Shown: positions 17,397 to 44,226 of the stretch, in pieces
How positions within the stretch are numbered: the stretch's first letter is position 1
How the letters are laid out: every line of letters begins with the position of its first letter
Virus record (IMG/VR): IMGVR_UViG_3300029893_000010
Span: 1 to 55,960 of that record
Length of the DNA stretch: 55,960 nucleotides
Reading direction: 5' to 3' (one strand)
Source: a virus
Taxonomy: Duplodnaviria > Caudoviricetes
Made by a program: the position numbers and the translations under genes
Notes under the pieces: generated by a model
The model's database searches: none
Told to the model about the DNA's origin: nothing
Seen by the model: the letters and a program-made list of their open reading frames with translations, nothing else

Positions 17397-17413
17397 GCTT
17401 CCTCGTTGATGAT

Positions 17414-18136
17414 CTAATATACAGGATAGGTCTTTGGTGGAACAACATGAGAACGGGTGTGGATGACCCCGTTCAGCCACACATTTCCATCTCCATGGAA
17501 TTCCCAATCCATCTCCCTGCCTCCCTCGAGCGGCACGACCCGGCTCTTTTGTATCCAGAACTCGGAAGGTTCCGGTTCTTCGATGGCGGGTTGAAGGATC
17601 GGGATATACACATCCCATGCCCGACCCGGGTTGATGATCTCGGTTCCGTTCCGAAGAATTGCGACAGCCTTCCAGAAACGATACGGTCGAAAGAACCAAT
17701 TATCGATACGGGGGTCAAGCAAATCCGTGTTCTGCTCGTTCGGGTAGGTGAGAACCTTGTAGTGTGTTGCTGTTTCTCCGGTAATGGCAATGATTCCGCC
17801 TCCACACACAACAGGTTCCGCCCGGCCGGTGGTGTATCTGTCATCGGGACGATACGCCCCATCCCCATCCACATTGATCCACATCAGATCGACACTGCGA
17901 GCATACCGAAATCCATCCTCATTGTTGATCTTCTCGATGTATCTCCACCAGTTCGCCTTTACGGAAAACCGGTCTCCTTTTTGCTCTCCATATCCATAAT
18001 TTTGCATACGGATGACATCCGGGAAATATGTGAGTTGAGGAAAACCCGTGCGGTTCGGGTCGTGCTTGACAAGCGCAAGACGAAGGCGTTCACGAACGAT
18101 CCTTTTTCTGGTGTAACGCACCTGGATGGTCTGCAT
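17414..18136 (-). CDS. Hypothetical protein
   Basis: 240-aa ORF in operon with coupled neighbours. Confidence 0.6.
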   Translation of the reverse strand: MQTIQVRYTRKRIVRERLRLALVKHDPNRTGFPQLTYFPDVIRMQNYGYGEQKGDRFSVKANWWRYIEKINNEDGFRYARSVDLMWINVDGDGAYRPDDRYTTGRAEPVVCGGGIIAITGETATHYKVLTYPNEQNTDLLDPRIDNWFFRPYRFWKAVAILRNGTEIINPGRAWDVYIPILQPAIEEPEPSEFWIQKSRVVPLEGGREMDWEFHGDGNVWLNGVIHTRSHVVPPKTYPVY

Positions 18137-18139
18137 TGC

Positions 18140-18565
18140 CTACTCCATGCCGTACGGTTTTCCGTCCACGAATATTTCCCAATCTTTCAGGTCGATCCCG
18201 GTGGGAGATTGGAGATTAATCTGCTTCGCGTCCGGGTCGATCATGAAACCAAAAATAACAGTGGAACCAATTGGAGCAGGAGGCTCCGGCTGTTCTTCAC
18301 CCGCGGGCAGAGGAAGATCACCAGACAACGAAGTGGCAAACCATTCGGGGTGCGGCTTCGTTCCGCGATATTTGACCGCAACATAACGCCCTGGAAACAC
18401 CGAAGTGAGTTGAACCCACATCTCATCTGCGGTGTTCTTGACGATGATGCCTGAGAATTTTTGAAGCGATGAAAGGGTTCCAACCTGGTCAAGGGCAGCC
18501 ACCTGCGCAGCCTTTCGCACGGTGATCTTTGCTCCGGCATTCACCTGAAATTGATAGTCAGTCAT
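18140..18565 (-). CDS. Hypothetical protein (SH3-like N-terminus plus Pro-rich linker)
   Basis: ITVRK...VGTL...W pattern and PEPPAP linker; AGGAG RBS. Confidence 0.55.
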   Translation of the reverse strand: MTDYQFQVNAGAKITVRKAAQVAALDQVGTLSSLQKFSGIIVKNTADEMWVQLTSVFPGRYVAVKYRGTKPHPEWFATSLSGDLPLPAGEEQPEPPAPIGSTVIFGFMIDPDAKQINLQSPTGIDLKDWEIFVDGKPYGME

Positions 18566-18568
18566 GTT

Positions 18569-19480
18569 TCACTCTCCTTTTTTCTGCCACCAGTCTATCG
18601 TTTTTTTCAATCCATCACGCAGGGGTGTGAACTTCATTCCCGTGCATGTTCGGATCGCCCAATTATCCATGTACACGCTTCCGCGTGGGTCATGCGAGTT
18701 TGTGTGTTCCCATTTATAACCCCGAACATCACAAAGATCTGCAATCTCGTCAACAACCTCGTTGACAGAATGGCTTTTTCCGGTCGCAAGGTTCATCGTT
18801 CCGTCCAAATCGTCCACGGTGGCTAATAGGTGTGCATACGCAACATCCTCGACGAACACAAAGTCCCGTTCCTGCCGTCCGTCACCCACGATTTTGAAGT
18901 CTGTTCCGTTGAAAAAATGGGACAATGAGCGGGCGATCACCTGGTTTTCACCAATGGACACCTGTTTCGGACCATAGACATTAGCGTAGCGAAAGATGCA
19001 ATGCGGAACATCGCTTTGCCGGATATACCATTCGGCAGCCAGTTTGCTGATGCCATACGGGCTGTCAGGCATAAGGGTCGAGTGCTCCTTCAATCGCCCC
19101 CAACGCTTCCGACCATACACTGCCGAGGTGCTCGAGAACACGAACCGTCTCACATTGTATCTTTTTGCCATGGCAAGCAGGTTGAGGGTCCCGACGATGT
19201 TGACCCGTGCGTCCTGCGCCGGGTTTTTCTCGGATACGGATATTGCGGACTGTGCTGCAAGATGGTGGATGATGTCCGGCTTGTAGATCGAGAATTTCCG
19301 CTGGAGCAATTGGTTGTCGGCAACATCGCAGATCTCGATGCTTCCGCGAAATCCTTTCAGGTTCTCGGTTCGTCCGGTGACAAAATTGTCGATCACTACG
19401 ACCTTATGACCATATTCTTCCAATGTTTTGGCGACATGGCTTCCGATAAAGCCAGCGCCACCAGTAACCATGATGTTCAT
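18569..19480 (-). CDS. NAD-dependent nucleotide-sugar epimerase/dehydratase (GalE-like SDR)
   Basis: GGAGFIG, SSTSAVYG, YGISK, RYANVYGP, RDFVFVED. Confidence 0.9.
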   Translation of the reverse strand: MNIMVTGGAGFIGSHVAKTLEEYGHKVVVIDNFVTGRTENLKGFRGSIEICDVADNQLLQRKFSIYKPDIIHHLAAQSAISVSEKNPAQDARVNIVGTLNLLAMAKRYNVRRFVFSSTSAVYGRKRWGRLKEHSTLMPDSPYGISKLAAEWYIRQSDVPHCIFRYANVYGPKQVSIGENQVIARSLSHFFNGTDFKIVGDGRQERDFVFVEDVAYAHLLATVDDLDGTMNLATGKSHSVNEVVDEIADLCDVRGYKWEHTNSHDPRGSVYMDNWAIRTCTGMKFTPLRDGLKKTIDWWQKKGE

Positions 19481-19884
19481 AGCGGTTTTCCGTTCGTATC
19501 GTAAGTCATATTTTCCTTCTCGTAAACGATGGTGTCTTTGAACACCTCGAAGCCAAGAGCCTTCAAGCGGACGATCATCAGGTGTGCGGCGAAAATGTTG
19601 CTGGAGTGGACGCGCATGACCGGCTTTTTCTTTCCGAACGGCCAGCCTGTCTTTTCAATATAACGCACGATCTCCATCCCGCAGGTTGGCGTGTCAGGGT
19701 CCTGAAAGTCATGCCCATTCAGGTCGTGGTCAAGAGAGACAAAGTCCCAATCGCTGCTGGACATCTGCTGAAGCGCCTCGGGTACGCAGGTGGCAATCGT
19801 CACATCGTAACCCTTGAGGTTCTCCAGCGCCCAATGAATTCGCTTTGTGCGGTCATCCACGAAGAGGAGTTTCTTCATCATCAC
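19477..19884 (-). CDS. Receiver-like domain protein (cyclic-phosphate-processing REC type)
   Basis: LFVDD, VSLDHDL, VHSSN motifs. Confidence 0.7.
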   Translation of the reverse strand: MMMKKLLFVDDRTKRIHWALENLKGYDVTIATCVPEALQQMSSSDWDFVSLDHDLNGHDFQDPDTPTCGMEIVRYIEKTGWPFGKKKPVMRVHSSNIFAAHLMIVRLKALGFEVFKDTIVYEKENMTYDTNGKPL

Positions 19885-20117
19885 ATCTCACCTCTCATCC
19901 TTGCCATCGTCCGAAGGTAACGACGACGGTGGCGATTTTTCCTTATCTGCCTTTCTATGCTTTCCGGGTCGTTCATGAAATCGAATATATCAGGGTGCAT
20001 TACCGAGAACAATTTCATTCCGTTCTGTGTGGATTCTTTGGCGGCGTCCGCGGCTTTTTTGAAAGCGTTCCCAAGTTCCTGCAATGCCTTCACTAGGGAT
20101 TCCATATCAATTTCCAT
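19881..20117 (-). CDS. Hypothetical protein
   Basis: Overlapping starts and stops within the operon. Confidence 0.5.
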   Translation of the reverse strand: MEIDMESLVKALQELGNAFKKAADAAKESTQNGMKLFSVMHPDIFDFMNDPESIERQIRKNRHRRRYLRTMARMRGEM

Positions 20118-21078
20118 AGATGATTTTACTTCCTTCCATTTCTATTCCAAAATCGACCTTACGCAGACCTGTTTCGCGCAGAATGTCACGGTGGGTTGAC
20201 ACAGGCGCCAAAACGAACATAAATCCGCCTCCTCCGGCGCCAAGAAGTTTTGCGCCCCATCCTCCGCATCGCAAAATGTCCTTATGCCATTTGTCAACAT
20301 TGGGGTTGGTGATTCCGGATGCAAATGTGCGCTTGAGACGCCAGCCCTCATCCATGATGGCTGCAAGATATTTTATGGAAGCACCGCTGACCATGGCTTG
20401 ATGGAATTCCTGCGCAAGTTCTGTCATCTTTTTCATGGACGAAACCGAACGCCCTTCATGGGCATTGAGAGACTGTTCCTTGAGGATTTCGTTCGCAGAA
20501 CGTCCACTGCCTGTCCATAGAAGAAGGGCATGTCTTTCAAAGTCGTCCACCCACTCCTGTGAGACGTTCAACCTGCGTATGCAAACGTTCCGCTTTCCAA
20601 AGGTGATGTAGTTTACGCCACCGTAAGCGGCCGCATATTGATCCTGCTTTCCAACCGATGCGCCGCACTCTGTCTCGACCGTCCATGCCCGTTCCGCAAG
20701 GATGGCGCGCGGGTCAAGATCTTCGGGGTCTTTCAGGAGAGCCTTGAGGAGTCCAACCGTGAAGGAACTTGAAGATCCCAGCCCGCTGCCATGCCCCGGG
20801 ATGTCCGCCACGGACGTGATCTCAAGATGGTTGAATATTTTCGTCATACCAAGCGCGGTACGGACCAGATCGTGCTGGATCTGGTTGCGGCTTTCCACGT
20901 CCTCGGTCTTGGAGTACGAAATGCGAAACCCATCCTCGAAGCGTTTGTTGCATGAAACATACACATATTTCTTGATTGCAAAGTTCACGACCGCGCCAAG
21001 GTGTTTTTCGTAGAACGACGGAATGTCCGTTCCGCCTCCGATCAGGGAGATCCGCAGGGGTGTGCGTGTGATTATCAT
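20107..21078 (-). CDS. hddA: GHMP kinase, D-glycero-alpha-D-manno-heptose-7-phosphate kinase-like
   Basis: RTPLRISLIGGGTD, GSGLGSSS, GKQDQYAAAYGG, GAKLLGAGGGG. Confidence 0.85.
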   Translation of the reverse strand: MIITRTPLRISLIGGGTDIPSFYEKHLGAVVNFAIKKYVYVSCNKRFEDGFRISYSKTEDVESRNQIQHDLVRTALGMTKIFNHLEITSVADIPGHGSGLGSSSSFTVGLLKALLKDPEDLDPRAILAERAWTVETECGASVGKQDQYAAAYGGVNYITFGKRNVCIRRLNVSQEWVDDFERHALLLWTGSGRSANEILKEQSLNAHEGRSVSSMKKMTELAQEFHQAMVSGASIKYLAAIMDEGWRLKRTFASGITNPNVDKWHKDILRCGGWGAKLLGAGGGGFMFVLAPVSTHRDILRETGLRKVDFGIEMEGSKIIYGN

Positions 21079-21767
21079 TGCCAACTCTTTTCTGTGCCAA
21101 TGTGCTTCCAGGCGCCCCACACAGAAATTCCAGCCGGTCTCCATATCCACGGACCCGTATTCAGGCGGTACTGGTCATCCATGTGCAGTTCGATATTCCC
21201 TGGATTCCTGTCCTCCGCAAACCATCCGTATGCTTTTGTAAATCTTGCATGACGGATATAGGGATTGCCAGAGTAGGCATATTGGGTACTTTCCATGTAT
21301 TGCAGGAACATTTCGCCGTTACAGCCTACGGTGTGGACATCGGCTCCAGACGAAAGGATGCGATAGGTGATCGCTCCAACATCCTCCCGATCCGAAAGGA
21401 TGCGCATGTGCCGGGTGATGTCAAGAGTCTCGTCAAGGTTCCAGTCGTCCTCCAGCCAAAGTACATAATCGCTGAATTGATGGCAGATACCGAGCCCTTT
21501 GTTCCAGCCAATCCCGGCGTTGTGAGTATCCTCTTCGCCTTCATTGCGTATCCTGGCACTATGGAATCCGATGATGCGTTCGTTATTCTTCTCTAGCAGT
21601 TCCATGATTGACGCCATGTGATCCTGCGGGGATCCATCGTCCGCAATGTACCATCCGCGATTTTCCTTTGGATAACAAAGGTTTTCGCATGTCGATTTTA
21701 TTGTTTTCAGCGCCACTTCGGTGCGCTTGTATGTTGCAATGCAGATCGCAAGGTTAGGCGATGTCAT
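21075..21767 (-). CDS. GT2-like glycosyltransferase
   Basis: ICIATYKR, IADDGS, WLEDD. Confidence 0.8.
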   Translation of the reverse strand: MTSPNLAICIATYKRTEVALKTIKSTCENLCYPKENRGWYIADDGSPQDHMASIMELLEKNNERIIGFHSARIRNEGEEDTHNAGIGWNKGLGICHQFSDYVLWLEDDWNLDETLDITRHMRILSDREDVGAITYRILSSGADVHTVGCNGEMFLQYMESTQYAYSGNPYIRHARFTKAYGWFAEDRNPGNIELHMDDQYRLNTGPWIWRPAGISVWGAWKHIGTEKSWQ

Positions 21768-22701
21768 TCTTCAACAACTCCGCAAGTTCTTCCCTGGTAA
21801 GCCGCTCTGCGTTCTCGCTCGTGAACGGGATTCCCAATTCTGTTACGACCCTCTGTGTCGTTGTCGGTCGGACGACAAAGAAATCGTCGTGACTGCGAAC
21901 GAACTCAGCCTCCTCGAGAGACACAAGCGTTTCGTGTTTCTTCTCTCCGGGACGCATCGGAACCTGCCGATTGCCATGTTCTCCAATGGTGTAATCGAAT
22001 AACTGCTGGATGGACAATGACTTGAGTTTCGGAACGTAGATCTCACCGCTCTCCAATTCCAAACAATCCTCCACGATCTTTGCGGCGTGTGCAGGGGAAA
22101 GCCAGAAGCGGGTCATCTCCGGGTCTGTGATGGTCGGGGTTTCACCGCGCTCGATCTGCGCCTTCCACACCTCAATGACAGAGGCGGTGGACTCCAGTAC
22201 ATTCCCATACCGGACAAGGTGAAACTTTGTGTGAACAGGCAGGCGCGAGTATTCCTGAAAGATCTTCTCCATCAGATACTTTGTGGCGCCGTAGGCATTG
22301 GCTGGATGACAGGCTTTGTCGGTCGAGATGCCGATCACGCGATCAATTCCATGCTGGATGGCTGCGTTGGCAACATTGATTGACCCTTCTACATTGATAT
22401 GGTATGTGTCAATTGAGTTGTATTCACTTGTTGGGATCTCTTTCACTGCCGCAGCGTGAATAACGATGTCGTGTCCCGCCATTGCGTTATAAAGCGTGGT
22501 GTAGTCCCTTACATCACCAACAACTGTATGTATAAATGGAAAAAACCTTTTTATCCGAGCGTGCTTTGTTGGATCTGTTGAGAAAATGGTTATGTGATTC
22601 CCGTAATCCCTCTCTATACACCTTCTTATTATTTCCGTTCCAAGGGTGCCACACCCTCCAGTCACGAAAAGTCTTGCGTTATTGAAAGCATTTTTACTCA
22701 T
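21754..22701 (-). CDS. UDP-GlcNAc 4,6-dehydratase-like SDR (PseB/FnlA/CapD family)
   Basis: TGGCGTLG, HAAAVK, ISTDKA, YGATK, RYGNVL, RPGEKKHE. Confidence 0.9.
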   Translation of the reverse strand: MSKNAFNNARLFVTGGCGTLGTEIIRRCIERDYGNHITIFSTDPTKHARIKRFFPFIHTVVGDVRDYTTLYNAMAGHDIVIHAAAVKEIPTSEYNSIDTYHINVEGSINVANAAIQHGIDRVIGISTDKACHPANAYGATKYLMEKIFQEYSRLPVHTKFHLVRYGNVLESTASVIEVWKAQIERGETPTITDPEMTRFWLSPAHAAKIVEDCLELESGEIYVPKLKSLSIQQLFDYTIGEHGNRQVPMRPGEKKHETLVSLEEAEFVRSHDDFFVVRPTTTQRVVTELGIPFTSENAERLTREELAELLKNDIA

Positions 22702-27058: not shown

Positions 27059-27093
27059 CAAAATGCACCCGCGAAAGGGACGGGTGCATTTTG
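27059..27093. terminator. Stem-loop between the cassette array and the head genes
   Basis: CAAAATGCACCCG / CGGGTGCATTTTG 13-bp inverted repeat. Confidence 0.55.
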
Positions 27094-27130
27094 TCTGAGT
27101 GGAGCAGGCACGAAGCGAACTTCCTGATTT

Positions 27131-27139
27131 ATTATAGCA
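27131..27139 (-). promoter_or_regulatory. Extended -10 promoter element
   Basis: TGCTATAAT upstream of the scaffold gene. Confidence 0.5.
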
Positions 27140-27143
27140 TAAT

Positions 27144-27317
27144 TTACGGTCTTTGCCTTGAAATGTTTATGACATCTTTTTGGTATTGAACGGTCAATAC
27201 CATTGCGTCTTTATGGGAGAATCCGCTTTCTATCAAAGCATCATAATAAGCACGAACCAAAGTAGCGAACTGGCTGACACCTTGAACAAGTTTTTCAAAA
27301 TCTGTAAGTTCTTCCAC
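27144..27317 (-). CDS. Small hypothetical protein (57 aa)
   Basis: GTG start with GGAGG RBS; MEELTDFEKL...YYDALIESGFS. Confidence 0.6.
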   Translation of the reverse strand: MEELTDFEKLVQGVSQFATLVRAYYDALIESGFSHKDAMVLTVQYQKDVINISRQRP

Positions 27318-27343
27318 TTTTGATACCTCCGCCAGTATGGGGC

Positions 27344-27451
27344 TGGCTACGGGCTTGCGCTACCTGCCGTATTTTGTGGATTTGCGCTGGGTAGTGGATG
27401 ACGACTTTTGAACCGTAGACTTGGCGATGTCAGGTGGACGCTTTGTTTGGC
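27344..27451 (-). other. attC A7 (terminal, non-canonical core GTAGCCA)
   Basis: GCCAAACAAAGCGTCCACCTGAC...GCAGGTAGCGCAAGCCCGTAGCC. Confidence 0.65.
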
Positions 27452-27560
27452 GGCGCTCTGGAATAAAAGATACCACCAAAAACAACAAGACTGAAACACA
27501 AAGACCAATTGCCGACTCAATAATTTTTACTTGTCTGTAATTCTCAAGGAACCAATCCAT
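27360..27560 (-). CDS. Cassette A7 small membrane protein
   Basis: One TM segment; AAAGG RBS; stop lies in the attC L' box. Confidence 0.65.
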   Translation of the reverse strand: MDWFLENYRQVKIIESAIGLCVSVLLFLVVSFIPERRQTKRPPDIAKSTVQKSSSTTQRKSTKYGR

Positions 27561-27592
27561 CGTTTTACCTTTCTCTCGGATGGCAAGGAAGC

Positions 27593-27727
27593 CGCCAACG
27601 GTTATGCTTTACCTGCGAATGCCGCAGTTTTCGCATTCCAACATTTCTGGCGTATCCAACGTACCATCCCATTTGAAAACATGAGGAAGCCCAGTGCGGC
27701 ATTTGTCAGGTGCAAGCGGTGTTAGAA
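27593..27727 (-). other. attC A6
   Basis: TTCTAACACCGCTTGCACCTGACAAATGCCGCA...TGCGGCATTCGCAGGTAAAGCATAACCGTTGGCG. Confidence 0.85.
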
Positions 27728-27866
27728 GGCGTTCTTGCTGGCAAGTTTTACACTGGCAATCTCTACCATGTAGGTGATTCGGATGCGTGAAGTATTCGCC
27801 ACATTTAGCGCAAAACCTGTTTTCAGGAAAGACAACATCAGGCAAGGTCATAAAATAATGTTTCAT
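27609..27866 (-). CDS. Cassette A6 second ORF, Cys/His-rich
   Basis: MKHYFM start, GAGG RBS, several CxxC; stop in L'. Confidence 0.65.
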   Translation of the reverse strand: MKHYFMTLPDVVFPENRFCAKCGEYFTHPNHLHGRDCQCKTCQQERLLTPLAPDKCRTGLPHVFKWDGTLDTPEMLECENCGIRR

Positions 27867-28066
27867 TTTTTTACCTCGTATTCGTAACAATCTTGGCATA
27901 CACCCTTTTTATACACAACACCTTCACCGCAAACAGAGCAAATAGCAGATTTCTTACAATTTTCACACTTATACACGCGCAAAACTACATTGCTATCAAT
28001 TACCTTCATGTAGAAATTTAGTTTTTCGTGGCAAGACGAGCATGTTAGTATTATTGACGTTTGCAT
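27863..28066 (-). CDS. Cassette A6 first ORF, zinc-finger protein
   Basis: Four CxxC motifs; ATGA overlap with the next ORF. Confidence 0.65.
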   Translation of the reverse strand: MQTSIILTCSSCHEKLNFYMKVIDSNVVLRVYKCENCKKSAICSVCGEGVVYKKGVCQDCYEYEVKK

Positions 28067-28073
28067 GATAGCC

Positions 28074-28190
28074 TTCTAACGGTTTGCGTTACCTGCGCTC
28101 ATTCTTCGCCCGAACACTCATGGCAAAGAGGGATAATTTCATCGCCACAACCTGTGCAGTAAATAGCGTCAGGTACACGCTTTGTTAGAA
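28074..28190 (-). other. attC A5
   Basis: TTCTAACAAAGCGTGTACCTGACGC...GCGCAGGTAACGCAAACCGTTAGAA. Confidence 0.9.
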
Positions 28191-28395
28191 GGCTTATTTC
28201 ACCTTCTGATACTACGCGAGTAAGACCATAACTAGGCTGATCCCATCTGAAGTGAATGCGAGTATGCCAGTTAGTGAGATTGCCAGCCGCATCCCAAGTT
28301 GCGTCAATATAATTTTCAAGGACATAACCTACTTCGGCGTTATCGTCTATGACTTCATCGCCGCGATTGAATGGGGGAAGTTGTTTATTTTGCAT
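28099..28395 (-). CDS. Cassette A5 hypothetical protein
   Basis: FNRGDEV KOW/SH3-like start; the C-terminal CTGC...CHEC is encoded in the attC loop. Confidence 0.7.
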   Translation of the reverse strand: MQNKQLPPFNRGDEVIDDNAEVGYVLENYIDATWDAAGNLTNWHTRIHFRWDQPSYGLTRVVSEGEISLLTKRVPDAIYCTGCGDEIIPLCHECSGEE

Positions 28396-28402
28396 GATAG
28401 CC

Positions 28403-28495
28403 TTCTAACGTACTTGCGTTACTGGTTTGCGGGTTGCGCCACGAGTGCCGAATTTGCGGACGAGTCTAGCAAATCCAGTGCACGCGTAGTTGTGC
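28403..28495 (-). other. attC A4
   Basis: GCACAACTACGCGTGCACTGGATTTGC...GCAAACCAGTAACGCAAGTACGTTAGAA. Confidence 0.85.
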
Positions 28496-28711
28496 CGCGC
28501 GTTTGTTGGCAAGTTCAACAGCCGCGCCATCGTGCGGGGCTGTAATCACAAACGATTTTCCTTGCGCCATGTGGACGGTATATTTTGAGTTACGCCCGAC
28601 GCGGCGTCGCCCAAATGAACGCCTGATATAAGACCCATCGGCAGCGGTGCAAACACGTTGCGCCAATGCCTGCTCAATTCGCTGACCTGTTTCTGTTGGC
28701 AAAGTAAACAT
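28466..28711 (-). CDS. Cassette A4 hypothetical protein
   Basis: MFTLPTE with GGAG RBS just after the core site. Confidence 0.6.
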   Translation of the reverse strand: MFTLPTETGQRIEQALAQRVCTAADGSYIRRSFGRRRVGRNSKYTVHMAQGKSFVITAPHDGAAVELANKRAAQLRVHWIC

Positions 28712-28726
28712 ATTTCTCCAAGAGCG

Positions 28727-28855
28727 GTACAACGGCTTACATTACCCGCTTATGGGCGGGACGAGACGAACTACGGGAGGAGTAAAATCTTCGGGCGTAG
28801 TCCACTGCATGGGAGCCGCAGACTCCCCATAAGTCGGGTGCATGTTTTGTTGGGC
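28727..28855 (-). other. attC A3
   Basis: GCCCAACAAAACATGCACCCGACTTATGGG...CCCATAAGCGGGTAATGTAAGCCGTTGTAC. Confidence 0.9.
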
Positions 28856-28969
28856 GGCTTGCCTGCCTGCCAGATACGCTGCGTGCGCGATTTCACGCAA
28901 ACCGACATCAACATTTTCCATCAGGCGAAATTTATTGATAGTCCACCATGTTTCAAATTCTTTATCCAT
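28742..28969 (-). CDS. Cassette A3 hypothetical protein
   Basis: MDKEFETWW...AYLAG; AAGGAG RBS; stop in L'. Confidence 0.7.
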   Translation of the reverse strand: MDKEFETWWTINKFRLMENVDVGLREIAHAAYLAGRQAAQQNMHPTYGESAAPMQWTTPEDFTPPVVRLVPPISG

Positions 28970-28994
28970 AAGACTCCTTCGTTGAGCGAGAGCC

Positions 28995-29107
28995 GCCCAA
29001 CGGTTTGCGTTACCCGCTTTCGGCAGGCAAGGCATTTTCAACTTTCACGAATTCGGGCAGGCTCAAAACGCCAGCCTTCAAAGAGTCGGGTACACGCGGT
29101 GTTAGGC
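28995..29107 (-). other. attC A2
   Basis: GCCTAACACCGCGTGTACCCGAC...GCGGGTAACGCAAACCGTTGGGC. Confidence 0.9.
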
Positions 29108-29669
29108 AACCTGCCCATTGCGCCGCAAATGCGTTTGCGATACCCTGATACGTGCGTGACCGCTCATGTGAACGGTTTTTACCAGGTGACATTTTATGTA
29201 TTCTTTGCTCTCTACCTTCCACGATATTTGTACTCTCCAAAAATGGCAAACCTTTTAGCCAAAGGCATGTAGCTTTTGTTTCACCATGCCCGAACTGATA
29301 CGGTTGTATTACTTGATCGTATTTTCTTCCAATGATTTCAACCGCGTATTTATGGGGTATAGGGTTTTCAACTGCAATCTTTGTGATAGGTGCGTTCAGA
29401 ATGAGTTTGAAAAACTCGGCTGCTTCCCGCATTTCCCGCCAAAGGTTTCTTTCTGCGAGCCAACGAACGCCCGAATTACATAACCTTGTGCAGGGAGGAT
29501 GTGCAACCATCAAATCCCACCCGCTGTATAGAATATCTCGGATGTCACCCTGATAGTGATTGCCTGGTATTTCCGTAGGCAATAAATCACACGACCAGGA
29601 TTCATGACCGAGCGCGGAGAACGCTTCACGAACCACACCACTGAACTCACAAGCTACAAGGATACGCAT
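29010..29669 (-). CDS. Cassette A2 phage-type DNA cytosine methyltransferase-like protein
   Basis: LVACEFSG, SCDL, AHPPCT, VENP, RSRTYQGIA..A.QW motifs. Confidence 0.8.
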   Translation of the reverse strand: MRILVACEFSGVVREAFSALGHESWSCDLLPTEIPGNHYQGDIRDILYSGWDLMVAHPPCTRLCNSGVRWLAERNLWREMREAAEFFKLILNAPITKIAVENPIPHKYAVEIIGRKYDQVIQPYQFGHGETKATCLWLKGLPFLESTNIVEGREQRIHKMSPGKNRSHERSRTYQGIANAFAAQWAGCLTPRVPDSLKAGVLSLPEFVKVENALPAESG

Positions 29670-29675
29670 AGGGTT

Positions 29676-29801
29676 GCCTAACGGTTTGCGTTAGCGGCGA
29701 GTGCCGCACTCTGAACAAATATCGGGATACGTTTGCTGGTCGGTGTACGCTGGCTTGGCGTGACAATGTGGGCACTCGTCCGCCTGCACGCTTTGTTCTA
29801 C
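29676..29801 (-). other. attC A1
   Basis: GTAGAACAAAGCGTGCAGGCGGACGAGTGCC...GGCACTCGCCGCTAACGCAAACCGTTAGGC. Confidence 0.9.
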
Positions 29802-29996
29802 CGCCTTCCTGCTATTGCGCATTACAACACGAGCGGCAAGGCGACCGATTGCAAGCAACTTCTGACGCTCAACCTTATCAGCCAGCGTAGATAATTCATT
29901 TGCCAATTTGCTGTTTTCGTAGCCATCATTCGCGCGGATGAAAAAAGCCGCTTTGCGTGCTGCTTCAATCAATTGATTTAATTCTTCGTTTGCCAT
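29691..29996 (-). CDS. Cassette A1 hypothetical protein
   Basis: AAGGAG RBS; CPHC...CSEC encoded in the attC; stop in L'. Confidence 0.7.
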   Translation of the reverse strand: MANEELNQLIEAARKAAFFIRANDGYENSKLANELSTLADKVERQKLLAIGRLAARVVMRNSRKAVEQSVQADECPHCHAKPAYTDQQTYPDICSECGTRR

Positions 29997-30019
29997 ATCA
30001 CTCCTTTTGCCAAGAGGCG

Positions 30020-30048
30020 GTAGAACTAGTGTTTAACCAGAATGTACA
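30020..30048 (-). other. attI-like site of array A
   Basis: TGTACATTCTGGTTAAACACTAG|TTCTAC; closely matches 43620-43648; TAAA-N5-GTT as in attI1. Confidence 0.7.
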
Positions 30049-30282
30049 TTATATTTCCAAGTCCTCTATCCGAACCTTGAGCATATCCAAGGCTTCCTGC
30101 GGTACCGATGTGTATCCAAGATGTCTGAAATAGTGGATGATGGCGTGGCGGGAAACATCCGTCGGGTTAATCGTAGTTGACAGAATTCCTTTATTCTTAT
30201 CGGATGCGATCTTTTCAAGAATCCAGTCAAATGGATCCCCATTTTGAATTCTCTTTCCTTGATTTTTGTGTATCTTCTTCAT
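30049..30282 (-). CDS. Hypothetical protein flanked by dif-like sites
   Basis: 77-aa ORF directly downstream of a promoter. Confidence 0.6.
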   Translation of the reverse strand: MKKIHKNQGKRIQNGDPFDWILEKIASDKNKGILSTTINPTDVSRHAIIHYFRHLGYTSVPQEALDMLKVRIEDLEI

Positions 30283-30289
30283 GCCATCT

Positions 30290-30318
30290 AGTGTATCGCA
30301 TAATGTACATTATGTCAA
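30290..30318 (-). promoter_or_regulatory. Sigma70 promoter (Pc-like) reading into array A
   Basis: TTGACA-N17-TACACT, 7 nt before ATG 30282. Confidence 0.65.
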
Positions 30319-30320
30319 CA
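30293..30320 (+). other. dif-like (Xer) site
   Basis: GTATCGCATAA-TGTACA-TTATGTCAACA; 21/28 identical to E. coli dif by manual comparison. Confidence 0.65.
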
Positions 30321-30321
30321 C

Positions 30322-32766: not shown

Positions 32767-35292
32767 TCACAAGTTCAATCTCATAACCATGTAACTTCCC
32801 ATGCTCGCCGTGACCGCAAGGTCAACCTTTAGGTTTTCGGCGCGCTTGACGATCCTTATGCGTGTGCTTTCCGTGTCGATCTTGGCGTCCGCGTTCTGAA
32901 AGTGTTCGCGGTCGAACGGTTCGCCGCGATGCCAGTATCTACGGTCACGGATCAAGTCCTTCATCTGGCTGTCCGCAAGGAGACGTAGAGACACCTGGTT
33001 GAACGAGAAGAACCATGCGAGACCTTCCTTCCGCAACCGTCCTGCCATATCATGTAACTGGAATGGATCGTACGCCACGCAGATGACATTATAATCTTTT
33101 ATCCACCTGCGTAACATCAATTCGGGTCCAGGGTTTTCCTCTGTTCCCTGGTAGTCGATCTTATTCCCTTTTGGGACCCACAACATCGACTGCAATTTAA
33201 CAACGTGTTCCGGTTCCTTTGGATGACGACATCCCATCCACATGCCGAACGAGTCGCCTGAGACAGAGGCGTCCATGGCGATCACAACGGGATGATCCTT
33301 TGGTATTTCAGGATACTCGCTTCTCTTGCAGGCGTCATACCACTCCATCGGCAAAAATGTCTCTGTGCTTGTCACCCACTGATTGCGGTGCATTCGCTGG
33401 AATTGATTGTCCTCAAGAATTGATGCCTCGGATTGATAGTATTCCTTTGTCTGCCAAGGGCAGCGTGGTTTCGTGTTCCATAAACAGATCATGCCTGCCT
33501 TTTTATTGACGTACACCTCCAGCGGGGCAGGTTCTCCATCGGTCACAGGGTACAACCGGTCAGGCCATAACATCTCACCTTGTTTGACGCCGAGGTCGTA
33601 CAGCGAATATAGCAGGTTACTCTCACCGGCGAAGCCTGCGTAACTTTCAACCCAGCGGAATGCTTTTCCGTATTTCGTTGGGGGTATGGTCATCTCCGAA
33701 TTTCCTGTCACAAACGGTCTACCTTCCCGTCGAGCGACGAATAATCCGCTTGAAACAGTTGGACACCATACTTTTCCCTTGTATTTTTTCAACTTCCAAT
33801 TGCTCTTATGTATTGATACCTGAACATTTCCAGTTGTGAGATTTACCCTCCACCATTTTTGATGAGGACGCACCGACGACCTGATCCCTCTCCGAAATGC
33901 AATTTCCTGCAAGTCATCAGCCATTCCCTTGGATGCACACGTTATCTGGAATGACCCGTCTTTTTTGATGTGCCCATCTCCAAGAATATACGAGTGAAGA
34001 AATATATCCAGTATCTCGCGGTCGGCATGAATTATTTCACGCGGGACACGTTTCTCGAAAGTCTTTCCAAACTTCTTCGTTATCGCCGCCAATTCCGTGC
34101 TGCTTATCTTGAATCCATCGCGTTTTGAAACCTTCACCCAATCCCCGAAAATATCCACCAAGATTGAGTGTATCTCGTCGTACTTCTCAGGATGTGGTTC
34201 CCGCAATTGAGATATTTTTACATGGCATGGTTTTCCTCTATAATCCGATGTGCTCCCTTCTGTCAGATACAGACCCAGAAACGCAGCCCACTTCTTGAAA
34301 GGAATATAGAGCGGTTCGTGGAATTTTGTTCGTTTGAGCCACACGCCCGGAGGATTTTCGGGAGAATGCGATACATAAAGCGGAGTTGTTACCGGGTGGT
34401 AATAACTGTATTTTGAATTTCTCAACTCCTCTGATGTCATCACAAAATTTTTCCCTTTTTCGTCATTCGCGCCAGAGAATGTGTAACCTCCATACAGACG
34501 GTGCTTGCTTGTACATGCAATTGAAAAAATCCTGTGCTCATACAGGTGAAGTTCCCCATCAAAATCAGACTTGAAGATGTTTTCCGGTTTCTCCCATTCT
34601 ACATATCCATTCCGATACGCGGCGATGTAATCATCATGCGTCAGGTCGATTCCTTTTTTCCATCCGTCGAACGTCAAAACGTCAGTTTCCTCATCAAGAC
34701 ACCACATATTTTGCTTCGCGGTTTCGTTCGCGCCCCACAACTCCGAGAAGGTAATCATGTCAGCATTCGAGCCAGCCTCGCCGCTCGGGTCAATAGGGAT
34801 GGCTTCAATGTACGATCCACTCGGGACGACGATCTTGTACCCGGTCATCTTGCACGACTTCTTGTGTTTATCGTTCAACTGGATGTTACGGCGGAGATAA
34901 TGCGCGACGCGGCTGTCCGCCTGCTTGAGATCGTTAGCGATCACATACAGCTCGCCAAATTCTGAGTGCGTGGCTATCGCAAAGTTGACCGCCGCGGCAA
35001 TCGTTGATTTTCCAGATTTCTTGATGTCAGACCACACCACGATGGAATATTTATAATTTCCGTTCTCGTCGGTCGTCAGGATCTCCCGCAGGACATCCTC
35101 CTGATATTTCTGGAGTCCGATCCTGCCTTTCAGCACCGGGTCATGTTTCGTCTCGGGGATGTAGAAGTTCCGTTTGATCCAGTCAACCAGATCCTTCCTC
35201 CCCTCGCTCCTCTTCGTCTGTTCCCCAATCATCTCCGCGATCTTCTTCTCCAGCAAGGTCGCTGCGGTCTCCGATGATCCTTGAGTATTCAT
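32767..35292 (-). CDS. terL: Terminase large subunit containing an intein
   Basis: KKSGKST Walker A, ITFSE Walker B variant, AMDAS...D, AYDP and VDLAV nuclease motifs. Confidence 0.9.
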   Translation of the reverse strand: MNTQGSSETAATLLEKKIAEMIGEQTKRSEGRKDLVDWIKRNFYIPETKHDPVLKGRIGLQKYQEDVLREILTTDENGNYKYSIVVWSDIKKSGKSTIAAAVNFAIATHSEFGELYVIANDLKQADSRVAHYLRRNIQLNDKHKKSCKMTGYKIVVPSGSYIEAIPIDPSGEAGSNADMITFSELWGANETAKQNMWCLDEETDVLTFDGWKKGIDLTHDDYIAAYRNGYVEWEKPENIFKSDFDGELHLYEHRIFSIACTSKHRLYGGYTFSGANDEKGKNFVMTSEELRNSKYSYYHPVTTPLYVSHSPENPPGVWLKRTKFHEPLYIPFKKWAAFLGLYLTEGSTSDYRGKPCHVKISQLREPHPEKYDEIHSILVDIFGDWVKVSKRDGFKISSTELAAITKKFGKTFEKRVPREIIHADREILDIFLHSYILGDGHIKKDGSFQITCASKGMADDLQEIAFRRGIRSSVRPHQKWWRVNLTTGNVQVSIHKSNWKLKKYKGKVWCPTVSSGLFVARREGRPFVTGNSEMTIPPTKYGKAFRWVESYAGFAGESNLLYSLYDLGVKQGEMLWPDRLYPVTDGEPAPLEVYVNKKAGMICLWNTKPRCPWQTKEYYQSEASILEDNQFQRMHRNQWVTSTETFLPMEWYDACKRSEYPEIPKDHPVVIAMDASVSGDSFGMWMGCRHPKEPEHVVKLQSMLWVPKGNKIDYQGTEENPGPELMLRRWIKDYNVICVAYDPFQLHDMAGRLRKEGLAWFFSFNQVSLRLLADSQMKDLIRDRRYWHRGEPFDREHFQNADAKIDTESTRIRIVKRAENLKVDLAVTASMGSYMVMRLNL
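33700..34701 (-). mobile_element. Intein with LAGLIDADG endonuclease (334 aa)
   Basis: NMW|CLDEETDVLT...WCPTV...VTGN|SEM; FLGLYLTEG and FLHSYILGDG LAGLIDADG-like helices. Confidence 0.9.
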
Positions 35293-37684: not shown

Positions 37685-37787
37685 TTTTATCCCCTGCTCG
37701 TGACTATCACCCGCGTGATAGTCATCATGGAAGGGATAAACCCGACCCGCCGAAAGGCGCAAACCTAACCCCGAAAGGATAAAGATC

Positions 37788-38174
37788 ATGTTTCAAAAGA
37801 ACTACAAAAAAGCCCTACGCGCAGAGATTATCGCCCGCATCAACTTTGACGGCTATCTCTCCACCGACGAACAGCCAAAGACCGCCGACGAAAAAATCAT
37901 CCTGCTTGTCAACACCGCCAAGGCAGAAGTTGGTCACGAATTCGAGCGACATGGAACCCATGCCGGCCTCAAATATTGGTTGTCTGGTCTCCCGTCTGTG
38001 ATCGACCTGCCGGTTTATAACGGCGAAGTTGTAGAATTTGCCGAGAAAATCGGGTCCGTTGTCAATCCGACCGAAAAAGAAGCCGAAAAAATCACCGAGA
38101 ATTTCTACGGCTTTATGGCTTCGGCTATTTACCAGATGTACTATGAAGCGACCCGCCGAATGTCTCGCAAATAA
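37788..38174 (+). CDS. Early hypothetical protein
   Basis: GAAAGGA RBS; WLSGLPSVID motif. Confidence 0.7.
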   Translation: MFQKNYKKALRAEIIARINFDGYLSTDEQPKTADEKIILLVNTAKAEVGHEFERHGTHAGLKYWLSGLPSVIDLPVYNGEVVEFAEKIGSVVNPTEKEAEKITENFYGFMASAIYQMYYEATRRMSRK

Positions 38175-38275
38175 TTTGCCCCGTGCTAGTGCCTATAATC
38201 TCCCGCCGATTGTAGGCATTATGGACCGGACAAACATCCGCCACTAACCCCTAACCCCGAAAGGAAAAAAAGATC

Positions 38276-38554
38276 ATGAGAGACCGAGTCAAGCAATCCG
38301 ACCTTGAAGCCCTTGTATACACGATCAACCAACTGACAGGATCGCCTACCGAATACTCAACCAAGCAATCAGACGGCACGCATAAGACCAACGTTGGCCA
38401 CTACTGCCTTTCATACGCCTATGGTGGTGTGAATCTTCATCGCGTCGTGTCTGACGGCGGCGGCGTCACCACCCCTTTGGGCGGCGGTTATCACACCAAG
38501 CGTGAACTTTACTACCGCCTGCAATCCTTCATCAACGGATTGACCGCCCGATAA
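38276..38554 (+). CDS. Early hypothetical protein
   Basis: GAAAGGA RBS; AYGGV.L...GG motif. Confidence 0.7.
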   Translation: MRDRVKQSDLEALVYTINQLTGSPTEYSTKQSDGTHKTNVGHYCLSYAYGGVNLHRVVSDGGGVTTPLGGGYHTKRELYYRLQSFINGLTAR

Positions 38555-38646
38555 TCTGACAGGATAACCCGCCCGGCGCAAGATCGCGCACTCGAAAAGC
38601 CGGGCGGCATTCCTGAATTATTCCCAAACCCGAAAGGATAACCACC

Positions 38647-38865
38647 ATGACCACCCAGACCACCAAAGTTATTTTCAAACGCTGCCCCGAAGGGGATGTG
38701 ATCGCCCTCTTCCCCACCCTGCCGGGCACTCGTGACCCGTACTCGACCTGCATGTCCTACATGCACACCGGACAACACGGTCACGCATCCACCGACCTCT
38801 TCACCCTCCCGCCCGCACAACCCGCCGAATACGCCGACCTCGCCGCACGCAAGAACGCCCTCTAA
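38647..38865 (+). CDS. Early hypothetical protein
   Basis: GAAAGGA RBS; VIALFP...SYMHTGQHG. Confidence 0.7.
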   Translation: MTTQTTKVIFKRCPEGDVIALFPTLPGTRDPYSTCMSYMHTGQHGHASTDLFTLPPAQPAEYADLAARKNAL

Positions 38866-40020: not shown

Positions 40021-40550
40021 CCGCCATCGTCCAGGACATCCCGTTTGCCATTGTCCTCGACACCGACCATTCCTTCACGCCCGCCGAAGTGCAGCCCGTG
40101 ATCGACGGCTACGTCTGCGCGATCTGCCACGCCGAACTCGTTGAGGTGCAGGTGCCGAACGAACAGCGCCGTCTCATCGTCTGTCCCGAACACGGCAACG
40201 TCTGCGACTGCGGACGCGTCACCCGCGCCACGGTTTCCATCGAATACGAACGCGCGTACAGGTCCTACCATGAGGTCATCCGAAACCTCTCCGATCTGTG
40301 GGGTCATCTCGCAGATCAGGGCTTCGACCGCAACAAGGCGTCCATCATCACCAAAAATTACGTCTGCGCCGTCTGCGGAGGAACCCTGTATATGTTCATC
40401 CGCTCCGATGATCGCTTCGGCGACATCATCGACATCAAGTGCTCGTCTCACGGCAATATCAACCTTTGCGGGCACACCAAGAAATCCGAATTCGTCTATG
40501 ACTTCCAGCGCATCCGCGCATGGGAGCGAGAAAACAGAAAAAGGAGATAA
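40017..40550 (+). CDS. Double zinc-finger protein
   Basis: Two YVCAxC...CxxHGN repeats. Confidence 0.7.
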   Translation: MTAIVQDIPFAIVLDTDHSFTPAEVQPVIDGYVCAICHAELVEVQVPNEQRRLIVCPEHGNVCDCGRVTRATVSIEYERAYRSYHEVIRNLSDLWGHLADQGFDRNKASIITKNYVCAVCGGTLYMFIRSDDRFGDIIDIKCSSHGNINLCGHTKKSEFVYDFQRIRAWERENRKRR

Positions 40551-40552
40551 TC

Positions 40553-41608
40553 ATGCCTATCGCAAACCTCACCACCGGAACCAATCAGACCTTTATGAAA
40601 CTCGGAAAGATCCGCAAAGGCGACCGCGGCGGAAAGAACGGCGCTCCGCGCGACCTCGACCACTTCCGCGTCACCTTCATGGACGGCGCCAAGGCGAAGG
40701 AACTGGAGGATGCCTTCCGCTCCATCTACGGACCGGAACCCACCGAGATCAACGTGCGTGTCCCGTACAACGACATTCCCCGCTTCTGGGACGCCAATTA
40801 CGAATGCTACAAGCAGGGCGGACTCGTGGCGCAGGCTGGATCGACCGCGGATGGGGATTACTGGATCTTCTACCGAGACCCCGAATCCTCCGAGGTGCTC
40901 GTGCGCAACGGTCAGTCGGTTGGAGAGGCGGGACGCATGTTCCTTGCCAACAACCCATGCGACGTGACCAAGCCGATCTACTACAACGCCGCCAACGAAC
41001 CCGTCATGATGAAACCTGCCGGACGCCTGCAAGTCGTGATCCCCGAACTGGCGGGAATCGAGGTCGGGTACTTCGAGTTCACTCCCACCTCCCCACGCGA
41101 CATCCGTACCCTCTCCGCCGAACTGGCAGCCTTTGACGCCATCGCCAAGTCGTTCGGCAAGGGCTTGGCGGGTGTGCCGTTCAAACTCATCCGTCGCAGG
41201 GAGACCGTCACCAAGAAGATCAAGGATAAACTCACACAGGGCGAATCATGGGTCGTGCATATCACGACCGGCGGAGATTGGGGCACAAAAGCCCTGGAAG
41301 CCGTGGAACGCATGGCGCTCCCGGACGTGGTGGACGTGGAGCCGGAGGACATCACCGACTACGAAACGACCGACATCATTGACATCACTCCCCCGCAGAT
41401 CCCTCCCACGGTCGGCGCACTCACTCCCATGCCGTACGAACAGGCAGTGAAGGTCACGATCCAAGGCAGGGATAAGACCGTCAAGCGCATCGCGGACCTG
41501 GACCGCACCAAGATGGAGTGGATCGTCCGCAACCCGGACAAAACCTCAAAGGAACAGCAGGACGCCGCCCGCACCATCTTGATCGTCGATCATGGAGTGC
41601 AACTCTAA
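40553..41608 (+). CDS. Putative recombination / ssDNA-annealing protein (Gp3-like family)
   Basis: LGKIRKG...DLDHFRV...GRLQVVIPEL...GVPFKLIRR motifs. Confidence 0.6.
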   Translation: MPIANLTTGTNQTFMKLGKIRKGDRGGKNGAPRDLDHFRVTFMDGAKAKELEDAFRSIYGPEPTEINVRVPYNDIPRFWDANYECYKQGGLVAQAGSTADGDYWIFYRDPESSEVLVRNGQSVGEAGRMFLANNPCDVTKPIYYNAANEPVMMKPAGRLQVVIPELAGIEVGYFEFTPTSPRDIRTLSAELAAFDAIAKSFGKGLAGVPFKLIRRRETVTKKIKDKLTQGESWVVHITTGGDWGTKALEAVERMALPDVVDVEPEDITDYETTDIIDITPPQIPPTVGALTPMPYEQAVKVTIQGRDKTVKRIADLDRTKMEWIVRNPDKTSKEQQDAARTILIVDHGVQL

Positions 41609-43576: not shown

Positions 43577-43619
43577 CGAGACGTATCGGTATTGGGAGGG
43601 TGCGATCCTCTCAATATCG

Positions 43620-43648
43620 TGTACATTCTGTATAAACCCTAGTTCGGC
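43620..43648 (+). other. attI-like site of array B
   Basis: TGTACATTCTGTATAAACCCTAG|TTCGGC; closely matches the array A site. Confidence 0.7.
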
Positions 43649-43674
43649 GCTTACTTGCAAAAGGAGATAAAAAC

Positions 43675-44199
43675 ATGCCCGACACAATCGAAGATATTGA
43701 AGCCGATATTATGTGGCTTGAAGAAGCAATCGGCGAAAATGAAGAAAGGCTTGAAGAACTTACCAGCGAAAATTACAAGCCAGAAGAAAATGCGGATGAT
43801 GAATACCGTGAAAAAGACATCGAAGAACTCACCGAAGGTATTGCGGAATACCGCCGTGAGATTGCAAAGTGTCAAAGAAAAATCGAAAGGCTGAAACGCG
43901 CCGAGCGTGAACGCCAAAATAAAAAGTGGGGTGAGCAAAACCACGATGATTATCGTTGGCTTGCTATCCTCACAGAAGAAGTAGGTGAATTGGCACAGGC
44001 TATTTTGCATGATGAGTTTGGCGGTTCGCACGCTGGCACTGCTAAAACTGAACTCGTTCACGTCGCCGCTGTTGCGGTTCAATGGTTGGAGTGCATGGAA
44101 AGGCGGCAACTAACACAGCGTGCACCGGACGCTACGCCACAGCCGCCATTGCGTGGCGAGGTATGGCGTAGCGATGAAGAATTGCCAACAGGCGTCTAG
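43675..44199 (+). CDS. Cassette B1: acidic coiled coil fused to a MazG-like NTP pyrophosphohydrolase domain
   Basis: ERERQNKKWG...ILTEEVGELAQA...ELVHVAAVA. Confidence 0.7.
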   Translation: MPDTIEDIEADIMWLEEAIGENEERLEELTSENYKPEENADDEYREKDIEELTEGIAEYRREIAKCQRKIERLKRAERERQNKKWGEQNHDDYRWLAILTEEVGELAQAILHDEFGGSHAGTAKTELVHVAAVAVQWLECMERRQLTQRAPDATPQPPLRGEVWRSDEELPTGV

Positions 44200-44226
44200 T
44201 CGCGCCAGTAACGCAAACCGTTAGCC
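44108..44226 (+). other. attC B1
   Basis: AACTAACACAGCGTGCACCGGACGC...GCGCCAGTAACGCAAACCGTTAGCC. Confidence 0.85.

Follow-up and report, generated by a model that had tools for sequence, protein, structure and literature searches.

Integrons are usually seen as devices by which bacteria capture genes. In phages, CALINs, clusters of attC sites with no integron integrase gene (intI) nearby, have been reported as rare and explained as stray pieces of host integrons. The phage genome analysed here raises the question of whether such arrays can have an entry site of their own. 'The window' denotes the whole stretch of DNA examined, an entire IMG/VR virus record of 55,960 bases with a CheckV completeness of 96%. 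It contains two arrays of cassettes, each of which starts behind nearly the same 25 nucleotides, referred to below as its 'head'. We think it likely that this shared motif is a composite, attI-like array entry site, in which a recombination core is combined with an accessory element, and that it would be acted upon by an integron integrase (IntI) supplied in trans.

The two heads

Head L, TGTACATTCTGGTTAAACACTAGTT, occupies 30048-30024 on the minus strand and heads array L; head R, TGTACATTCTGTATAAACCCTAGTT, occupies 43620-43644 on the plus strand and heads array R. An earlier, sequence-only reading of this DNA had described the two 25-mers as 22/25 identical and 13.6 kb apart, and direct read-out and a pattern search confirm both figures. 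The two heads are inverted relative to one another. A degenerate 25-mer pattern that spans both, with up to three mismatches allowed, matches the window at the two heads and nowhere else; in 100 dinucleotide shuffles it gave a mean of 0.00 matches, and in no shuffle two. A repeat search widens the similarity to 33 nt at 85% (30023-30055 and 43613-43645), head L resembling head R as far as 30055 and the resemblance of head R starting at 43613. The head profile matches head L at 30023-30066 (E 2.6e-8) and head R at 43605-43646 (E 5.2e-8). The crossover junction, marked here by an arrow (G↓TT), is placed between G 30026 and T 30025 on the minus strand in head L, and between G 43642 and T 43643 on the plus strand in head R. 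Past G↓TT the two have one C in common and then differ, which bears out the earlier statement that they diverge right after GTT.

The arrays and their attC sites

Array L (27350-30025, minus strand) consists of seven cassettes, read directly and marked by attC half-profile matches. Its internal G↓T junctions, also read directly, fall at 29682/29681, 29001/29000, 28733/28732, 28409/28408, 28080/28079 and 27599/27598. The final attC ends at G 27350, where the next bases are TA, not TT. A hairpin resembling an intrinsic terminator (27059-27093, minus strand) closes the unit, and a TTGACA-17-TACAAT promoter for the next gene follows it. Array R (43643-45090, plus strand), likewise read directly, consists of three cassettes: R1 (43643-44220), R2 (44221-44780) and R3 (from 44781, with an ORF at 44817-45086). 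The attC half-site profile matches array R at 44106-44133/44201-44230 and at 44655-44685/44761-44789. R3 has no complete attC, and a long hairpin follows it at about 45114-45159. Complete attC sites thus number seven in array L and two in array R, and with no intI in the record both arrays are CALINs by the usual definition (at least two attC sites, no intI nearby). A complete integron, with intI, attI and cassettes on one platform, does not occur in the window. Elsewhere in the genome, a solitary cassette-like ORF (13071-13490, plus strand) lies downstream of an Xer-like integrase gene and carries an attC of the array family, the 3' half of which (13468-13490) matches at E 5.9e-5 and the 5' half only at E 2. 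No head motif was found upstream of it.

The attC sites are imperfect palindromes of 85-125 nt that close the cassettes, with the consensus GCcGcCTAAC-AaAGCGTGCACCcGAC ... GCgGGTAACGCAAACCG↓TTaGGCgGc (189 paired sites from the viral loci listed). The attC at 28072-28198, folded on either strand, forms an outer stem of 9-10 bp, an unpaired spacer of 3 versus 5 nt, a variable loop and, between these two, an inner stem that has a single bulged base; the z-scores are -3.6 and -4.2. On folding, the arrays' own sites thus show in outline what defines an attC; their bulge pattern is, we presume, unlike that of canonical attC sites. The first bases of each cassette, moreover, are the reverse complement of the cassette's own inner arm: G↓TTCTACCGCC against GGCGGTAGAAC in L1, G↓TTAGGCAA against TTGCCTAAC in L2, and G↓TTGGGCGGC against GCCGCCCAAC in L3. 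This is as would be expected for circles recombined at G↓TT and, together with the attC folds, it marks the arrays as integron-type.

The heads behave differently from attC sites. They fold no better than shuffles (dG -1.5 to -5.6, z about 0), and lack the imperfect palindrome (R''-L''...L'-R') with unpaired spacer and extrahelical bases that characterizes attC. A profile of the attC 3' half matches neither window head, even at E<=5. For these reasons we take the heads to behave as duplex sites without an attC-like hairpin, as attI sites do. A head might instead be the 3' half of an eroded attC, given that both kinds of site end in ...G↓TT and have (C/G)GTA about 11-13 nt before the junction in our own alignment of the consensus sequences. 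We give this idea almost no credence, since besides the failed profile match the heads have neither a pairing partner nor a fold, and their conserved 23 nt are missing from the 189-site attC consensus.

Like attI sites, the heads stand at the promoter-proximal end of their arrays, with the cassettes joined at G↓TT. In head L, the junction is spanned by the 11 nt GTTCTACCGCC, an exact reverse complement of GGCGGTAGAAC, which is the inner arm of the L1 attC. In head R, the corresponding test against the first cassette failed at up to one mismatch. Within the R1 ORF, at 43890-43915 (plus strand), we noticed by eye a stretch that resembles a collapsed inner arm and is complementary to the 5' end of R1 (GCGCCGA...GCGTGAAC). 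Perhaps R1 consists of two cassettes that have fused, and the failure could be due to this.

The cassettes themselves appear to move between array positions. The product of L2 (29010-29669) has homologs in nine other loci, with 46-96% identity; in matching phage records the product is annotated as a DNA cytosine methyltransferase. One homolog, with 46% protein identity, is the first cassette in locus L103 and has the same start, TTAGGCAAC; closer copies (68-96%) sit in other arrays. When array L was compared by blastn with 50,697 phage records, the methyltransferase cassette was the sole match (71-75% identity).

Recurrence of the head in other records

A 15-mer from the 3' end of attC matched at least 119 viral stretches, single matches being expected by chance on simple arithmetic; among the 119 matches listed, about 50 loci have at least two attC sites on one strand. 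Among these attC loci, the head motif precedes the arrays of L012 (twice), L013, L056, L057, L076, L102 and L103. Further heads occur on a 6-kb contig of a metagenome-assembled genome (MAG) and in the phage record G007. The strict 25-mer pattern gave no matches in viral contigs, being too strict; a looser pattern gave 59 loci, of which 12 are new heads by profile and five were already known, the rest being due to chance. Among the matches listed, 21 viral or metagenomic records carry the motif TGTACATTCYG-N9-CATAG↓TT, at 24 places in all. The check proposed by the sequence-only reading, a search in front of the arrays of related phages, was thus positive, and in these records, too, cassettes start exactly at G↓TT.

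A profile of 23 of these heads reads TGTACATTCcG.t.AAa.CATAG↓TT.G.C. Conservation runs from -23 to +2, with none upstream of about -26 and none past the R' box of the cassette, and is strongest in CATAG↓TT at the crossover, where it ends exactly at the start of the cassette. The distance from TGTACA to the junction is 23 nt (22 nt in three of the 23 heads). In 17 of the 23, the 10 nt across the junction (G↓TT plus seven) recur downstream as their reverse complement, in 15 cases exactly, and the attC inner-arm motif comes directly after the recurrence in every case. Shuffled targets matched in 66 of 1150 trials (5.7%). The six heads that fail are head R, L012b, L102, L146, L152 and L186 (for L186 the test covered only 488 nt downstream); no attC was detected behind L012b, L146, L152 or L186.

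Where the flanks are homologous, the first cassettes can differ: five pairs of records (L165/L184, L148/L161, L102/L161, L149/L165 and L165/L201) are homologous upstream of the head (0.73-0.80) and at background level downstream of it (0.57-0.62; background median 0.57). We also looked for concerted similarity of the heads within single genomes, and draw no conclusion from it: heads of one genome are 0.80-0.84 similar versus a between-genome median of 0.72, yet 25% of the between-genome pairs reach 0.80.

Contigs from four public runs, representing three samples, end at 30024-30027, that is, at the junction of head L, which hints at a branch point there. The runs are stored as contigs, and joints between attC junctions with sides of only 20-29 nt were left out. 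Among 185,579 species genomes, a scan gave three loci, one of which is real, a 6.1-kb contig in an Ignavibacteriales MAG that has no IntI. We did not accept this single contig, from a MAG without IntI, as evidence of a host. On this distribution, the head is a phage-specific class of site.

The left half of the head, the small gene and site A

For the left half of the head, TGTACATTC in the window and TGTACATTCYG in the family (-23 to -13), the likelier role is that of an operator or accessory element, not of a piece of the crossover core. A small gene of 77 codons (30049-30282, minus strand) ends 3 nt before the TGTACA of head L. Genes of the same family (65-80 aa) lie directly upstream of 16 of the 24 TGTACA-type heads, ending 3-18 nt before TGTACA; three of these 16 copies are degraded. 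The family, which was found upstream of no other head type that we examined, is small: in a set of 1.84 billion proteins, 77 representative clusters belong to it at E<=0.001. Association with the head is not universal. There is no small gene upstream of head R, and none in G002 (which is 99% complete and has two heads), G015 or G016. The 77-aa protein of the window has no Pfam, PHROG or PDB match, and one of ten family members matches PF07704 weakly (E 0.0098). By our own reading of the sequence, the protein may be ribbon-helix-helix-like.

Before the small gene lies a promoter-like sequence of the form TTGACA-17-TACACT (30290-30318, minus strand; 10/12 in the promoter scan), which we call site A. 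Its spacer contains a perfect palindrome of 16 bp, CATAATGTACATTATG (30299-30314, minus strand; from the palindrome listing), which we propose is an operator. Site A and head L have ATAATGTACATT and ACACTAG in common. The arrangement of TTGACA, palindrome (ATAATGTACATTAT) and -10 box recurs before the small gene in four of 11 upstream regions (the window, L076, L158 and L155). In the heads the palindrome is asymmetric, only its right half being fixed, and eight of 23 heads have just the 6-bp core. The extended palindrome has no further copy in the window beyond site A, and none outside the heads in six relatives.

Might the head, then, be no more than a regulated promoter or roadblock that drives the arrays, without any part in recombination, and its place at the cassette boundary incidental? 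The linkage of the small gene to 16 of the 24 heads is what one would look for in that event, as is the presence of the same palindrome inside the good promoter of site A. Many heads, by our own reading, also have TATAAA- or TATAAT-like hexamers 6-7 nt past the palindrome, and in several relatives such a hexamer is accompanied, by eye, by a weak -35. Neither window head, however, is listed by the sigma-70 promoter scan, and the extended palindrome is not repeated, in the window or the six relatives, as it is in a typical set of operators. Conservation peaks at the crossover and stops exactly at the cassette start; the junction complement is present in 17 of 23 heads versus 5.7% of shuffles; first cassettes differ behind homologous flanks; and equivalent heads abut intI in other phages, as described below. 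Regulation as the whole explanation of the head is, on this evidence, improbable.

Recombinases of the window and of related phages

The window contains a single tyrosine recombinase gene (11912-12790, plus strand), and its product is XerA/XerC/XerD-like rather than an integron integrase. It scores 52.7 bits against the IntI model TIGR02249, for which the cut-off is 265, and its best models are XerA, XerC and XerD. A second IntI search matches it in two pieces (29.5 and 23.9 bits) that skip model positions 186-242. Its PDB matches are XerA and XerD, with IntI4 matching over 59 residues only. No intI was found in the window, the best score in that search being 29.5 bits against the cut-off of 265, and tblastn with seven phage IntIs (E<=10) found no intI remnant, near the heads or elsewhere in it. 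With arrays headed at G↓TT in a genome of this kind, the description of the heads as attI sites without an adjacent intI is supported.

The Xer-like enzyme is probably the phage's own integrase. Record G007 carries, right after its last attC, a homolog of it (38% identity) in addition to an IntI-like gene, which argues that the Xer-like protein is a phage integrase and not the cassette enzyme. On this ground, together with its IntI scores, its PDB matches and the occurrence of heads in recombinase-free records, we ruled it out as the enzyme that moves the cassettes.

A related idea concerns the heads themselves. The core of a dif site comprises two recombinase-binding arms of 11 bp around a 6-bp centre, where crossover takes place, and site A, with two inverted arms around a 6-bp centre, presumably resembles it. 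The TGTACA-centred sequence could accordingly be a dif-like core for the Xer-like enzyme of the window or for the Xer proteins of the host. We consider this highly improbable. The cassette junction is outside TGTACA, 17 nt further to the right; G036 and G038, which are 96% and 100% complete, have such heads and no tyrosine recombinase match; G007 has an Xer-like gene in addition to its IntI-like one; and site A has been kept as the small-gene promoter in four phages. The dif reading of site A was dropped, the palindrome being conserved as a promoter or operator of the small gene and the junction lying elsewhere.

Where, then, are the integron integrases? Six of the 32 array-bearing viral records that share this attC family encode an IntI above the curated cut-off (395-421 bits), and these six (G004, G013, G018, G021, G024 and G026) carry complete integrons, with intI, attI and cassettes. 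In the six intI phages (loci L122-L127), intI points the same way as the cassettes, with the head junction 1-17 nt past its stop codon, as in ...gaatcaTGAG↓TTAGCTGGC and ...cagTAGactgataaggatag↓TTAGTTTGC. These heads have other upstream sequences, share the end ...(A/G)AG↓TT, and pass the junction-complement test. Two further records hold something less complete: G007 encodes an IntI-like protein of 257 bits in which, by our own reading, the IntI-type insertion is present, and G012 has a 94-aa 3' remnant of intI beside its head.

For the TGTACA head type the picture is different. Among 20 such records tested for IntI, only G007 has an IntI-like gene, and the same is true of the seven that are at least 83% complete (the window, G002, G003, G025, G036, G038 and G007). 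In G007 the gene, which is co-directional with the head, begins an upstream stretch of about 740 nt in which a 127-aa ORF and a disrupted small gene separate the two. The proposal that the motif would be found next to intI genes was thus upheld for equivalent heads, and for the TGTACA type itself in this one record alone. A viral scan with the G007 IntI returned itself and one relative with 34% identity. A metagenome scan returned four close homologs (L211-L214); each has its intI just behind the terminal attC of an array that lies upstream, and the DNA around them showed no TGTACA-type head. Throughout one IntI clade (G007, which is L128, at 840-880; L211-L214; and L026 at 1975-2000), intI starts 8-30 nt past an attC G↓TT, and the Xer-like integrase gene of G007 is placed likewise. 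These recombinase genes look as if they occupied cassette positions at the far end of an array, and the block in G007 comprising intI, the ORF, the small gene and the head could have entered by recombination between a head and an attC.

Genome context and mobility of the platform

The genome is siphovirus-like and temperate, with tail genes at 1-10 kb, TerL at 32.8-35.3 kb and replication genes from 45.6 kb; glycosyltransferase and epimerase genes lie at 14.5-22.7 kb. Array L is situated behind the portal/TerL block, and array R before the replication block. G038, the nearest relative with a complete genome (100%, with terminal repeats), has a portal-like protein that is 73% identical and is syntenic with the window over 14.5-36.5 kb. 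It has a TGTACA-type head and no tyrosine recombinase at all. At the locus of array L, G038 has just a terminator and a TTGACA-17-TACAAT promoter, homologous to the pair that follows array L in the window. The platform, that is, site A, small gene, head and seven cassettes (27114-30321), is therefore a 3.2-kb indel between the two genomes. The platform that G038 does possess is at another locus, between other genes. The portal-like protein of the window is shared by none of the seven intI-bearing records (the six above the cut-off and G007), so that the system as a whole crosses phage lineages.

These findings bear on a further alternative, namely that the head is a historic or secondary site, either a fortuitous attG-like GWT entry point or one beside which an array was assembled before the neighbouring intI was lost, and that it is disused now that the platform moves only as a block, by homologous or illegitimate recombination. 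The indel relative to G038, whose platform sits elsewhere, and the truncated intI beside the head of G012 fit such a history, and one preprint describes insertion by IntI at attG (5'-GWT-3') and suggests that small CALINs may arise in this way (bioRxiv 10.1101/2022.09.11.507474). Unless selection acts on the site, it is nevertheless difficult to see why a 23-nt motif should persist at 24 places in 21 records, in phages that have no portal-like protein in common. Near-identical heads, moreover, are followed by different first cassettes, and there is no intI remnant near either head of the window. We judge a disused site to be unlikely.

Several other features of the genome were noted in passing. 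The block at 11700-13730 (plus strand), which includes the Xer-like integrase gene, the solitary cassette and the C-terminal fragment of an MT-A70 adenine methyltransferase (13493-13729), is missing entirely from the syntenic relative G038. The large terminase (32767-35292, minus strand; 841 aa) contains a LAGLIDADG-like domain in mid-protein, which suggests an intein or a homing endonuclease insertion; its homolog in G038 aligns over 313 residues only, with 79% identity. A 362-aa protein (40520-41608, plus strand) has a Gp3-like recombination directionality factor domain (PF18897, E 8e-25), and no serine integrase was found among the larger ORFs of the window that were scanned. At 37764-38649 (plus strand), a 27-nt repeat, CCTAACCCCGAAAGGATAA..ATG, occurs in three copies before successive small plus-strand genes and appears to be a shared leader or ribosome-binding-site module. 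The region 14580-22701 (minus strand) encodes a multi-glycosyltransferase of 1039 aa and two nucleotide-sugar epimerase-like proteins, which are candidates for surface modification. The record closes with a 132-nt unit in three tandem copies (55498-55960; 71-94% identical), and this is probably why the assembly stops there.

Comparison with known systems

The attI1 site of plasmid R100, beside intI1, reads ...gccctaaaacaaag↓ttaaac. The parallel drawn earlier between this site and the heads holds, in that R100 attI1 and both window heads share the spacing TAAA-N5-GTT; identity over the last 13 nt is only 6-7/13. The resemblance is also one of arrangement. Both are double-stranded, non-folding sites that head an array; crossover is at G↓TT, the cassette's own TTRRRY comes next, and 4-5 nt in front of G↓TT there is a ...TAAA(A)C box rich in A (ctaaaacaaag↓tt in attI1). 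The likeness is greater in some relatives, such as L162 (cataaaacatag↓tt), which matches attI1 in 9 of the last 10 nt. There are differences as well. The window heads adjoin no intI of their own platform, and neither do 19 of the 20 head-type records tested. In R100, intI1 is divergent from the cassettes, whereas the phage intI genes are co-directional with theirs and the head abuts the stop codon. The GTTRRRY-type direct repeats of attI were not seen upstream of the heads, where the conserved TGTACATTCYG is found instead, and the head is linked to a small gene.

The phage CALINs of Qi et al. (2023, PMC9892861), as far as the accessible text describes them, resemble the arrays of the window in being phage-borne, integrase-less attC clusters with methyltransferase cassettes. 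They differ in that the window head type recurs in 21 records, including near-complete genomes without any IntI. One precedent for an attI that heads an intI-less array is given there, the Shewanella prophage M16-3, but its attI is of the host-genus type and an IntI is present in the same prophage (PMC9892861). In the literature that we consulted, a conserved attI-like head in intI-less phage arrays is not described beyond that paper, the supplementary tables of which may list more. Sites of the attG kind, according to the same preprint (bioRxiv 10.1101/2022.09.11.507474), likewise receive cassettes as double-stranded DNA outside the classical platform and offer a route to intI-less arrays; attG is GWT only, whereas the head is a conserved 23-nt site with a fixed distance of 23 nt (22 in three of 23) from TGTACA to the junction.

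The small gene invites comparison with another well-known system. Small phage repressors, such as the ribbon-helix-helix proteins Arc and Mnt of P22, bind palindromic operators inside promoters. The small gene similarly lies behind a -35/-10 promoter with a palindrome in its spacer, and a second, partial copy of the palindrome lies downstream. Here, in contrast to the P22 system, the second site is fused to a recombination junction, and DNA binding by the 77-aa protein is putative.

A model for the head and its significance

According to the explanation that we favour, an attI-like entry site with an accessory element, the right part of the head (about -13 to +2) would be a double-stranded attI-type core, YG-N-T-N-AAA-N-CATAG↓TT in the family and GGTTAAACACTAG↓TT and GTATAAACCCTAG↓TT in the window. 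The folded attC of an incoming circular cassette would be recombined into this core between G and TT, as a result of which each new cassette would land right behind ...TAG. The left part, TGTACATTCYG, would be an accessory element, most likely an operator or half-operator for the small protein encoded at 30049-30282, the gene for which bears the full palindrome ATAATGTACATTAT in its own promoter. Binding of the small protein would tie transcription of the array, and perhaps access to the site, to that protein. With no integron integrase of its own, the phage would have to rely on an enzyme supplied in trans, the source of which might be a co-infecting or resident intI phage, or an integron of the host. 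The phage thus probably collects accessory genes with an enzyme from another element. The motif and its place, the junction signature, the recurrence in other records and the counterparts beside intI are observations; that IntI acts on the head, that the small protein binds DNA and that a promoter is active there are inferred from sequence comparison.

The earlier claim that the arrays are more than orphan CALINs can be answered only in part: the attI-like heads that set them apart are supported, and the arrays are CALINs still by the usual definition. A bolder reading, which we offer tentatively and are inclined to doubt, is that they represent a portable, phage-specific, integrase-less integron platform, composed of a promoter-operator, a gene for a small DNA-binding protein and an attI core, by means of which recombinase-free phages stockpile and express cassettes with a borrowed IntI. 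The module would be 30024-30318, and 43613-43645 a bare core; IntI would be borrowed from co-infecting integron-bearing phages, and the small protein would gate expression or access. The cargo of the arrays, methyltransferases and many unknowns, plausibly consists of counter-defence genes. Since the two heads are inverted, IntI could also invert the 13.6-kb packaging and early block that lies between them.

What emerges is a single attC family, together with a family of head sites and several clades of IntI, spread across dozens of phage records from the environment. Some of these phages have an intI that runs into its own attI; others, the window among them, have no integron integrase and retain a conserved entry site. 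The head provides a concrete site of 25 nt, together with candidate enzymes and a candidate regulator. If it is active, phages would trade accessory genes cassette by cassette through an enzyme acting in trans, and headed CALINs would be working platforms rather than debris, which would bear on the origin of CALINs and on that of attI.
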